Part shown: one piece after another, positions 24,001-27,000 of the stretch
How the letters are laid out: the number at the start of each line of letters is the position of its first letter
Numbering within the stretch: the stretch's first letter is position 1
Source: a virus
Lineage: Duplodnaviria; Heunggongvirae; Uroviricota; Caudoviricetes
Strand: one strand, 5' to 3'
DNA: 27,461 nucleotides
Virus record (IMG/VR): IMGVR_UViG_2718218399_000001
Made by a program: the position numbers

Positions 24001-27000
24001 GGCGAAAAATGCCGATATCAGCGGTAACGTGAATGCGAACTCCGGGACGCTCAACAACGTCACGATTAACGAGAACTGTCGGGTTCTGGGAAAATTGTCC
24101 GCGAACCAGATTGAAGGCGATCTCGTTAAAACAGTGGGCAAAGCTTTCCCCCGGGACTCCCGTGCACCGGAGCGGTGGCCATCAGGAACCATTACCGTCA
24201 GGGTTTATGACGATCAGCCGTTTGACCGGCAGATTGTTATTCCGGCGGTGGCATTCAGCGGCGCTAAACATGAGAAAGAGCATACTGATATTTACTCCTC
24301 ATGCCGTCTGATAGTGCGGAAAAACGGTGCTGAAATTTATAACCGTACCGCGCTGGATAATACGCTGATTTACAGTGGTGTTATTGATATGCCTGCCGGT
24401 CACGGTCACATGACACTGGAGTTTTCGGTGTCAGCATGGCTGGTAAATAACTGGTATCCCACAGCAAGTATCAGCGATTTGCTGGTTGTGGTGATGAAGA
24501 AAGCCACTGCAGGCATCACGATTAGCTGAATTTTATAACCCAGATACGGGCGCCAGAAATGGCGCCTTTTTTATTGCAGAAAAGCGAGAGGTAATTATGC
24601 GTAAATTATGTGCTGTTATTTTGTCCGCAGTAGTCTGGCAGGTCGCCGCTGCTACGCCAGCGAGTGCAGCAGAACATCAGTCCACGCTGAGCGCGGGGTA
24701 TCTCCATGCCTCGACGAACGTTCCCGGTAGTGATGATCTGAACGGGATTAACGTGAAATACCGTTATGAGTTTATGGACGCGCTGGGGCTGATTACGTCC
24801 TTCAGTTATGCCAATGCTGAGGATGAGCAAAAAACGCGCTACAGCGATACCCGCTGGCATGAAGATTCCGTGCGTAACCGCTGGTTCAGCGTGATGGCGG
24901 GGCCGTCTGTACGCGTGAATGAATGGTTCAGCGCGTATGCGATGGCGGGTGTGGCTTACAGCCGTGTGTCGACTTTCTCCGGGGATTATCTCCGCGTAAC
25001 TGACAACAAGGGGAAAACGCACGATGTGCTGACCGGAAGTGATGACGGTCGCCACAGCAACACGTCTCTGGCGTGGGGAGCTGGCGTGCAGTTTAACCCG
25101 ACCGAATCCGTGGCCATTGATATTGCTTATGAAGGCTCCGGCAGTGGCGACTGGCGCACTGACGGTTTCATCGTGGGTGTCGGTTATAAGTTCTGATTAG
25201 CCAGGTAACACAGTGTTATGACAGCCCGCCGGTTCAGGCGGGCTTTTTTGTGGGGTGAATATGGCAGTAAAGATTTCAGGTGTACTGAAAGACGGCACAG
25301 GAAAACCGGTAGAGAACTGCACCATTCAACTGAAAGCCAGACGTAACAGCGCCACGGTGGTGGTGAACACGGTGGCCTCTGAAAATCCGGATGAAGCCGG
25401 TCGTTACAGCATGGACGTTGAGTACGGTCAGTACAGCGTTATTCTGTTGGTGGAAGGGTTCCCGCCGTCACATGCCGGGACCATCACCGTGTATGAAGAT
25501 TCTCAACCGGGGACGCTGAATGATTTTCTCGGTGCCATGTCGGAGGATGACGTCCGGCCGGAGGCACTGCGTCGTTTTGAACTGATGGTGGAAGAAGCGG
25601 CGCGTCACGCTGAGGAGGCGAAGAAGAATGCCGGAGAGGCGGAGACGTCCGCGAGGAATGCCGGCATATCAGCCAGTCAGGCAGAAGAGAGCGCGGCAAA
25701 TGCTGACACTTCAGCAGGGGATGCATCGGAGTCAGCCCGGCAGGCGGCAGAAAGTGCAGCCGCTGCAAAGCAGTCAGAGGAGGCGTCCTCGTCCTCGGCC
25801 TCTGCGGCCGCTCAAAAAGCCAGTGAGTCATCACAAAGTGCAGCAGATGCTGAGTTGTCAAAAAAGACGGCAGAAAGTGCAGCCGGTAATGCAGCCAGGG
25901 ATGCAACGACCGCAACAGAAAAAGCCCGGGAGTCAGCAGAAAGCGCACAGTCAGCGGAACAAAGCAGGATAGCGGCGGAAGAGGCCGTAAACCGAATCCC
26001 CACCGTGGTGGGACCTCCCGGGCCAAAGGGGGAACAGGGGCCCGCGGGTCCTCAGGGGCCGAAGGGTGATAAGGGAGAGCGCGGTGACACCGGCCCTGTC
26101 GGGGCAACCGGCGAACGGGGACCGGCAGGTGATGCTGGTCCGGCAGGCCCGCAGGGGCCGAAAGGTGACAGGGGAGAGCGGGGAGAGACCGGTCTGACGG
26201 GAAATGCAGGTCCACAGGGTCCAAAGGGAGATACCGGTGCGGCAGGCCCGGCAGGCCCACAGGGACCGAAAGGAGAAACAGGTGCGGCTGGCCCGGTGGG
26301 GGCAACCGGACCTCAGGGACCGAAGGGCGACCCGGGGGAGACACAAATCCGTTTTCGTCTGGGGCCGGCGAGCATTATTGAGACAAACAGCAATGGCTGG
26401 TTCCCGGATACAGATGGCGCACTCATCACCGGACTGACCTTTCTTGACCCCAAAGATGCCACACAGGTTCAGGGGCTGTTTCGGCATTTGCAGGTCAGGT
26501 TTGGTGACGGGCCGTGGCAGGATGTTAAGGGGCTGGATGAAGTGGGCAGTGATACAGGCAGAACAGGAGAATGACATGAATATACTAAAAAAACTTATGC
26601 AGCGTCTGTGTGGTTGCGGAAAGCATGATGGCCGTGAACACGGGCAGTCGCTTACAGCACAACTGCGACTGGGGCCGGCAGACATCCTGGAGTCCGATGA
26701 GAATGGTATTATTCCGGAGCAGGACAGGGTAATCACGCAGGTGGTGATACTGGATGCGGATAAAAAGCAGATACAGTGCGTGGTAAGACCGCTGCAAATC
26801 CTGCGTGCTGACGGGACGTGGGAAAATATTGGCGGGATGAAGTAACCCGACAGCTTCACAAAACCGGAGTCCGGCTCCGGTTTTTGTGTTGCAATGTCCG
26901 GGGGATATTTGTTAGGTAGATTGTATTGTATGTAAAGGCAGAGCTCCGAATTTTACTGTTGTAAGTGGGCCTGGCGGGAATGGTATCGCCAGCATCATTG

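Follow-up and report, generated by a model that had tools for sequence, protein, structure and literature searches.

What is the small gene that lies directly behind the side tail fibre gene (stf) of a lambdoid prophage, and does its presence mean that the fibre has lost its tip? The question is raised by IMG/VR record IMGVR_UViG_2718218399_000001 (Caudoviricetes), a stretch of 27,461 nucleotides (nt) that is referred to throughout as the window; all coordinates are those of the full window and refer to the + strand unless stated. Here stf is followed, after a single nucleotide, by an open reading frame (ORF) of 89 amino acids (aa) that resembles the C-terminal module of the fibre itself. An earlier note on this DNA had taken the fibre to be truncated and the small ORF to be either a remnant of fibre-tip exchange or a small fibre-associated protein. 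The analysis demonstrates that the locus is an ordinary two-gene side-tail-fibre cassette of lambdoid prophages of the enterohaemorrhagic Escherichia coli (EHEC) type, that the fibre is complete and not truncated, and that the small ORF is real, expressed and selectively maintained. The best reading of the small ORF, in which our confidence is evenly balanced, is that it encodes a dispensable fibre accessory protein co-translated with the fibre. The cassette consists of the following features.

25223-25252, + strand: terminator-like hairpin and T run between lom and stf (8-bp stem with 7 GC pairs, then TTTTTGTGGG), the upstream boundary of the two-gene unit.
25261-26574, + strand: stf, an EPclA-type collagen-like side tail fibre of 437 aa from the annotated ATG at 25261 (the mechanical ORF starts at GTG 25255).
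25261-25659, + strand: PfN, the lambda-Stf-like N-terminal tail-attachment domain (PF08400, phage_tail_N; Pfam match at aa 3-135, E=8.7e-69, 230 bits).
25660-26010, + strand: PCoil, an Ala/Glu/Ser-rich stretch, placed from the sequence and a trimeric coiled coil according to work on EPclA (Ghosh 2012, PMC3368898).
26011-26343, + strand: collagen-like shaft of 37 uninterrupted Gly-X-Y triplets (111 aa), with Gly at every third residue (Pfam Collagen, PF01391).
26347-26538, + strand: PfC knob of the fibre (PF06820, Phage_fiber_C, 64 aa; Pfam match at aa 365-428, 122.9 bits, E=6.5e-36).
After the PfC knob, + strand: fibre tail of 11 aa, EVGSDTGRTGE, with the ribosome-binding site of the next gene within its last codons.
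26359-26369 and again 26669-26679, + strand: CTGGGGCCGGC, a word of 11 nt (LGPA codons) that recurs in identical codon phase; the two modules share no longer exact match.
26566-26578, + strand: coupling junction GGAGAATGAcATG, made up of GGAG at 26566-26569, the stf stop codon TGA at 26572-26574, one C, and the ATG at 26576.
26576-26845, + strand: the 89-aa PfC-only gene, with PfC at aa 28-89 (nt 26657-26842).
26857-26893, + strand: intrinsic terminator, a hairpin (~26857-26888) and U run that closes the unit of stf and the small ORF.

The two modules were compared at both the protein and the DNA level. Each matches PF06820 over the full profile (1-64/64), the small ORF with 123.2 bits and the fibre with 122.9 bits, both at E~1e-36, where the gathering cut-off of the family is 25 bits; this is the sole Pfam match of the small ORF, for which zero NCBIfam matches were obtained. 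BLASTP between the modules gives 25/62 identities (40%) at E=8e-16, and the DNA sequences agree at 51.7% of positions in an alignment of 201 nt, the mismatches being distributed over the four bases as A 34, G 26, C 22 and T 15. The protein-level similarity is significant and, as judged from these alignments, the modules are true paralogues whose likeness is far beyond chance, as the earlier note had claimed. Other parts of its description were confirmed as well: the fibre has the lambda-like N-terminus and the collagen-like region, both recognized by Pfam; the small ORF begins 1 nt past the stf stop codon with a GGAG ribosome-binding site 6 nt 5' of its ATG; and a terminator lies 3' of it, the hairpin of which folds at -26.1 kcal/mol (z=-4.93), a value that 0/200 shuffles equalled. 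The small protein consists of a predicted short helix (aa 3-11), a variable linker rich in Cys and His (aa 12-27) and the PfC domain (aa 28-89).

The fibre gene itself proved to be a complete member of the commonest architectural type of such fibres. The fibre region is 99.6% identical in DNA sequence to that of phage VT1-Sakai (Sp15 of E. coli O157:H7 Sakai), where the gene is H0004/ECs2941, and ECs2941 of Sp15 is listed among the proteins for which EPclA was defined as PfN-PCoil-Col-PfC, with 437 aa and a collagen domain of 111 aa (Ghosh 2012, PLoS One 7:e37872, PMC3368898). The stf product of the window has this architecture, with PF08400 at the N-terminus, a single uninterrupted collagen domain and PF06820 at the C-terminus, and its collagen length of 111 aa is the value given for ECs2941 in Table 2 of the same paper. 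Recombinant EPclA is a trimeric dumbbell of 55-62 nm in which the PfC knob makes up the distal globular domain; PfC also forms trimers when isolated, and a Col-PfC fragment rapidly refolds its collagen helix after melting, from which it was concluded that PfC nucleates the triple helix (PMC3368898). The coiled-coil conformation of PCoil comes from experiments on the near-identical ECs2717 protein, and trimerization of both EPclA and PfC was achieved in vitro without the downstream ORF (PMC3368898).

The same fibre has been studied on virions. EPclB, a variant with two collagen domains (ORF67 in Sp5, gp61 in phi24B), is the lateral tail fibre of short-tailed phages, and in Sp5 it is essential and is immunogold labelled at the tail ends (Mondal et al. 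2016, Sci Rep 6:39036, PMC5155283). Cryo-EM of phi24B revealed six fibre trimers, each with a small C-terminal globular domain. The window protein shares with the Sp15 copy the PfN domain, the 111-aa collagen and the PfC knob, and no substantive difference sets it apart from the EPclA and EPclB fibres, which with Sp5 ORF67 and phi24B gp61 are the closest known system. The biochemistry of EPclA together with the Sp5 and phi24B fibre data therefore identify the PfC knob as the normal distal domain, and the truncation proposed by the earlier note is not upheld. That note was right in finding no Tfa-like chaperone, as neither the small ORF nor the neighbouring ORFs have a Tfa-type (Caudo_TAP) Pfam match; the absence of a tfa gene is normal for an EPclA-type fibre.

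The conservation of the small ORF was examined in 84 related loci, with diversity computed among unique alleles. Both the junction GGAGAATGAcATG and the intact length of 89 aa are kept in 82/84 loci. Across the whole small ORF the synonymous diversity (piS) is 0.114 and the non-synonymous diversity (piN) 0.016, a piN/piS ratio of 0.14, which falls to 0.07 in the PfC part and rises to 0.38 in the N-terminal 28 residues; the PfC core of the fibre gives 0.39. The segregating sites of the small ORF comprise 23 synonymous and 22 non-synonymous positions, where neutrality expects about three times more non-synonymous ones. Codon differences between the window and individual phages follow the same pattern. 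In the PfC part of the small ORF there are 8-9 synonymous and 0 non-synonymous differences from Sp5 and 434, as against 4 synonymous and 5 non-synonymous in its N-terminal extension, while the fibre C-terminus has 6 of each from Sp5, and 2 synonymous and 3 non-synonymous from 434. All substitutions relative to the Sp5 allele (K5R, R10S, G19D, R20C and H22N) lie among the first 28 residues. The PfC part of the small ORF is thus under strong purifying selection and, on account of both the piN/piS ratios and the codon differences, the free knob is conserved more strictly at the protein level than the fibre's own knob.

The linker of the small protein (26609-26656, aa 12-27) contains C12, C14, H17 and H22, and nowhere does the gene vary more (G19D, R20C, H22N, G23V, Q24E, S25L). 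These Cys and His residues may form a metal site; alleles with H22N are seen both with and without R20C, so that there is no clean compensation.

In phages the small ORF is found wherever the fibre knob is found. With either the fibre PfC or the small ORF as query, tblastn returned 296 phage records, with the same organism breakdown and about 2 places per record; the small ORF and a PfC-ended fibre always occur together there, 1:1. The same 1-nt gap separates the two genes in long-tailed phages (VT1-Sakai, lambda h434 imm21) and in short-tailed ones (VT2-Sakai/Sp5). Among complete E. coli genomes 697/5426 contain the small ORF, at 6801 places and with a median of 11 per positive genome. The family is nearly confined to Escherichia and Citrobacter: a word-indexed protein search with the small ORF gave 177 proteins, an exhaustive profile search of 1.84 billion representatives gave 80 matches, almost all of them E. 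coli fragments or chimeras, and a scan of one genome per species returned only E. albertii and two likely contaminant contigs.

Evidence that the small ORF is translated comes from the proteome of phi24B virions purified by sucrose gradient, in the supplement of which the peptides VITQVVILDADKK and ADGTWENIGGMK are each represented by 3 spectra (bioRxiv 10.64898/2026.04.10.717836, hereafter the phi24B preprint). Both peptides map only to the small ORF and are identical to the window sequence. The natural C-terminal peptide of the fibre, GLDEVGSDTGR, accounts for 47 spectra in the same virions. In the part of the phi24B proteome that was covered there were no peptides from the upstream extension of the small-ORF frame (WAVIQ..., AEQENDMNIL). 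These peptide data, as far as the supplement extends, indicate that the small ORF is translated as a separate small protein that is present in virions at most in traces. Hypothetical fusions of gp61 and gp59 by frameshift were also included in the search database of the phi24B preprint (as 'Fusion_6159_FS1/FS2', with the label 'Spike or just gp59?'), and in gel band 23 the fusion entry has 25 counts and gp61 24 (bioRxiv 10.64898/2026.04.10.717836). The extra count in band 23, a band whose position in the order of bands is not stated in the text of the preprint, would fit free gp59 of low molecular weight.

The gene has been catalogued several times under different names. Its equivalents are H0003/ECs2940 of VT1-Sakai, ORF68 of Sp5, L0122 of 933W, 'gp59' of phi24B and phrog_576, the profile of which covers the small ORF over 1-89/89 at E=2.3e-60. 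The ORF68, L0122, H0003 and phrog_576 proteins represent the same gene, with protein identities of 94-100% and the same site 1 nt past the fibre stop codon, and the window protein is 98% identical to an 89-aa protein cluster (P0001). In the VT1-Sakai record H0003 is annotated as 'hypothetical protein, similar to 933W L0122' and H0004 as 'tail fiber protein'; the PGAP name for the small-ORF family is 'phage tail fiber C-terminal domain-containing protein'; and the lambda h434 imm21 record labels the small ORF 'tail fiber assembly chaperone', apparently from position alone. In Sp5, ORF68 was noted as a PfC-only ORF and placed among the non-essential genes after systematic in-frame deletions (Mondal et al. 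2016, PMC5155283). Its deletion is viable, whereas that of the fibre is not, and in the laboratory it is needed neither for plaque formation nor for lysogenization (PMC5155283). Literature searches by locus tag and for fibre work on lambda h434 or 2B8 yielded nothing on the small ORF beyond Mondal et al. (2016) and the papers cited here. The arrangement is therefore already known from Pfam, PHROGs, PGAP, the Sp5 deletion of 2016 and the phi24B proteome of 2026; what is added here is the 1:1 pairing, the conserved coupling junction, the stricter selection on the free knob and the lack of recombinants of the kind that a reservoir of spare knobs would produce.

A reservoir of this kind was put forward by Mondal et al. 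(2016, PMC5155283), who suggested that the small ORF is an intragenomic store from which a spare knob is moved onto the fibre by recombination. The word CTGGGGCCGGC forms a direct repeat at the start of both modules, 310 nt apart and in the same phase, and a deletion between its copies would give the fibre the second knob in frame; moreover, of the two copies it is the PfC of the fibre that varies more, and there are about 11 copies of the cassette per EHEC genome. However, a DNA identity of 51.7% between the modules is too low for homologous exchange, and the predicted recombinant junction TTTCGTCTGGGGCCGGCAGACATCCTGGAG has 0 matches in 2.9 million IMG/VR contigs, in which 282 stretches encode a relative of the module and the best 80 of the 282 carry the parental small ORF. 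In E. coli genomes a chimeric query merges both pieces into one 'place' and does not separate recombinant from parental loci. Long proteins with the small-ORF type of PfC were found in neither protein database search, apart from one collagen-PfC chimera at a contig edge (P0063, the one chimera tested). As a silent cassette would need no conserved ribosome-binding site or ATG, no protein-level purifying selection and no translation, a reservoir is quite improbable. Still less credible is a remnant without function, left behind by an earlier exchange of fibre tips, as the earlier note had considered, or by a duplication. That the small ORF is paralogous to the adjacent module, is non-essential and belongs to a very narrow family, essentially of Escherichia and Citrobacter, would agree with such an origin, but an ORF intact at 89 aa in nearly all loci, with 23 synonymous against 22 non-synonymous sites, a piN/piS of 0.07 in its domain, conserved translation signals and peptides in the phi24B supplement does not behave as a relic. 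The retained ribosome-binding site and ATG, the purifying selection and the translation also contradict the suggestion that it is the out-of-frame relic of a longer fibre gene. Equally far-fetched is a programmed frameshift or readthrough fusing the fibre to the small ORF to give a longer fibre with two knobs. The frame of the small ORF (+1 with respect to stf) extends open as far back as 26444, and UGA followed by C is a weak stop context; the authors of the phi24B preprint, as mentioned above, kept hypothetical 'Fusion_6159' sequences in their search database. The shift would nevertheless have to be +1, and the sole heptamer resembling X XXY YYZ, CCCAAAG at 26449, is out of phase, and slippage on it would abolish the first knob. 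Read from the sequence, the last sense codon, GAA, is unable to re-pair at +1, and in-frame readthrough of the UGA meets another stop after 17 codons. Mondal et al. (2016, PMC5155283) found no frameshift signal, and in the part of the phi24B proteome that was covered the natural C-terminal peptide of the fibre is abundant and no junction peptide occurs. Programmed frameshifting of the kind known from lambda G/GT was rejected, as there is neither an in-phase slippery heptamer nor, in the same part of the proteome, a junction peptide.

Two further explanations accept the small protein as functional, and both are unlikely to a similar degree. It may be a minor component of the virion, whose trimers on the fibre knob or elsewhere on the tail would serve as distal adaptor or adhesin, much as T2 gp38 does on gp37. 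Peptides unique to the ORF in gradient-purified phi24B virions, the presumed translational coupling to the fibre gene and the constant association with PfC-ended fibres are consistent with this. On the other hand, 3 spectra per peptide against 47 for a fibre peptide of similar size, in the supplement of the preprint, correspond to well below one copy per fibre chain, and the running text of the preprint, leaving aside Table 1 with its 15 candidate structural proteins, does not discuss the small protein. The PfC part shows almost none of the variation that is to be expected of an adhesin, and the Sp5 deletion is viable (PMC5155283). A stoichiometric tip adhesin in particular is unlikely, since few peptides were counted, the deletion is viable and variability is lacking. 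Alternatively, the role of the small protein may be independent of the fibre: a soluble PfC trimer could target the host or other phages (a receptor decoy or an exclusion factor, for example), or the gene could be moron-like cargo at the boundary between tail and moron genes. The small ORF is indeed the last gene before the accessory (effector/dinI) region, with a strong terminator after it, and it is non-essential for phage growth; a microarray signal for ECs2940/ECs1229 was present in uninduced cultures, where cross-hybridization among the ~10 copies is likely. This does not explain the strict tie to PfC-ended fibres in two unrelated tail types, nor the start codon 1 nt past the fibre stop, and no promoter-like site lies ahead of the small ORF on the + strand. 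The N-terminus, MNILKKLMQRLCGCG, by eye has no signal peptide, convincing lipobox or adequate hydrophobic core, and a lipoprotein or secreted small protein was rejected on the last of these grounds.

The cassette was also compared with known systems in which a small gene or a second module accompanies a fibre gene. The Tfa-type chaperones (lambda Tfa, Mu/P2 Tfa, T4 gp38; Caudo_TAP) are similarly encoded by a small gene directly 3' of the side-tail-fibre gene. The small ORF, however, has no sequence kinship to Tfa and is instead a paralogue of the fibre's own C-terminal domain; furthermore, the fibre trimerizes in vitro without the small protein and the deletion is viable. In the invertible G/C segments of Mu/P1 and the VR/TR system of Bordetella phage BPP-1 a second copy of the C-terminal module likewise lies just 3' of the fibre gene, whereas here the second copy points the same way as the first, starts from a ribosome-binding site and an ATG of its own, and is adjoined by neither an invertase nor a reverse transcriptase. 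An invertible tip switch (Mu G/P1 C) was rejected because the second module is on the same strand with its own start and is neighboured by a 66-aa ORF and dinI, although inverted repeats were not specifically searched. A diversity-generating retroelement was likewise rejected: the copies are 51.7% identical, each of the four bases is affected by mismatches, and the late/tail region of VT1-Sakai that corresponds to the tail genes of the window has no annotated reverse transcriptase; positions 1 to ~11400 of the window, its early region, were not checked for one.

The surroundings of the cassette are those of an O157 prophage. Over its first 12 kb the window matches the chromosome of E. coli O157:H7 strain 86-24 at 100% identity. 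An integrase gene (75-1361, minus strand) and the early genes are joined without a break to a capsid gene (11478-12518), after which come the lambda-like tail genes Z-J, then lom, stf, the small ORF and dinI. In contrast to VT1-Sakai, the window lacks genes for terminase, portal and lysis as well as stx. The window thus looks like a deleted, defective prophage of the Sp15 type; this distinguishes its copy from other EPclA/EPclB cassettes, and the analysis of the cassette is unaffected by it. Gene J, for the tip and host specificity, is broken up into two ORFs that overlap (21006-22232 and 22109-24529), and the same split is found in the VT1-Sakai record, where it is annotated as 'truncated protein by a mutation'. 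Facing the fibre cassette on the minus strand (26856-27461) are a 66-aa ORF with no Pfam match (VT1-Sakai H0002, 'similar to YkgJ') and a DinI-family gene (27213-27461). The VT1-Sakai record places an SOS box and promoter for the H0002 and dinI genes just past the end of the window.

Some of the more distant matches deserve a description of their own. Two short contigs, L006 (labelled Xanthomonas pisi) and L007 (labelled as a metagenome-assembled genome of Clostridiales), carry fibre or small-ORF sequence nearly identical to EHEC prophage copies and are probably contamination or the result of mis-binning. In five proteins (P0063, P0066, P0088, P0028 and P0054) the PfC of the small ORF is joined to collagen, J, Lom, CII-like or J N-terminal fragments; these chimeras look like products of deletion or mis-assembly among many prophage copies. 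Fibres of uncultured phages (P0148 at L088 3505-5202; P0174-P0182) contain 2-4 tandem modules of ~75 aa between collagen segments, with the pattern GVHIGxDTPP...VVVLD...ILRVRQADGTWxEIPA. The C-terminal half of this module aligns with PfC in a profile-profile comparison (hhalign; probability 93.8%, E=1.7e-7, last 36 columns). In P0148 and P0175-P0182 it is this half (VVVLD...ILRVRQADGTW.EIP) that is shared with PfC, together with the Gly-X-Y flanks. In contrast to PfC, these modules are internal and repeated within one polypeptide, and in the one contig examined there is no free-standing copy 3' of the fibre gene. Such kinship would fit a PfC fold that serves as a trimer node for collagen. The ~75-aa module does not appear to have been described as a family of its own.

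The preferred reading, that of a dispensable accessory protein co-translated with the fibre, can be outlined as follows. PfN attaches the fibre to the tail, and the coiled coil and collagen triple helix form the shaft. The PfC of the fibre trimerizes three chains and nucleates the collagen helix from its C-terminal end, as experiments on EPclA have demonstrated. The second gene would be translated by coupling to the fibre stop codon, so that its amounts are tied to those of the fibre; this coupling is inferred from the ribosome-binding site inside the last stf codons and the gap of 1 nt. The small protein may then trimerize through its own PfC fold, or contact the fibre knob during or after folding of the fibre. 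Its part would thereby be that of a non-essential accessory or assembly factor, or of a tip partner in substoichiometric amounts, rather than that of an obligatory chaperone of the Tfa type. The small fibre-associated protein named in the earlier note thus still stands as the most plausible account of the gene, with the mechanism put forward here as a proposal.

Several points weigh against such an accessory role. The contact between the small protein and the fibre is an inference. AlphaFold2 modelled the monomer with a predicted local distance difference test score (pLDDT) of 64.9 from a 6-sequence alignment and of 49.7 after distant modules were added; both models contain an N-terminal helix and 5-6 short strands and are too weak to use. 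A Foldseek search of the PDB with the small-ORF model returned nothing below E=0.4, and sequence and profile searches of the PDB with the small ORF gave only chance matches. The peptide counts reported in the phi24B supplement are very low and could reflect a co-purifying contaminant. The Sp5 deletion has no reported phenotype, so that a role in assembly, if there is one, must be either subtle or restricted to certain conditions. Tight physical linkage alone can also explain the co-occurrence of the two genes and the association of their alleles.

It is tentatively suggested, as a possibility more doubtful than the accessory role in general, that the 89-aa protein represents an unrecognized kind of fibre accessory, a free-standing paralogue of the knob that docks homotypically on the PfC knob or transiently joins the nascent C-termini of the fibre chains. 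If this is true, a free knob could govern how the chains of collagen-like phage fibres register, how stable these fibres are or what properties their tips have, by a mechanism distinct from both Tfa-type chaperones and intramolecular chaperone domains. A small gene that is kept more strictly than the fibre knob, and is translated, is not junk and offers a well-defined target. As the same fibre is carried by long- and short-tailed Shiga-toxin phages, it bears on the spread of stx between hosts.

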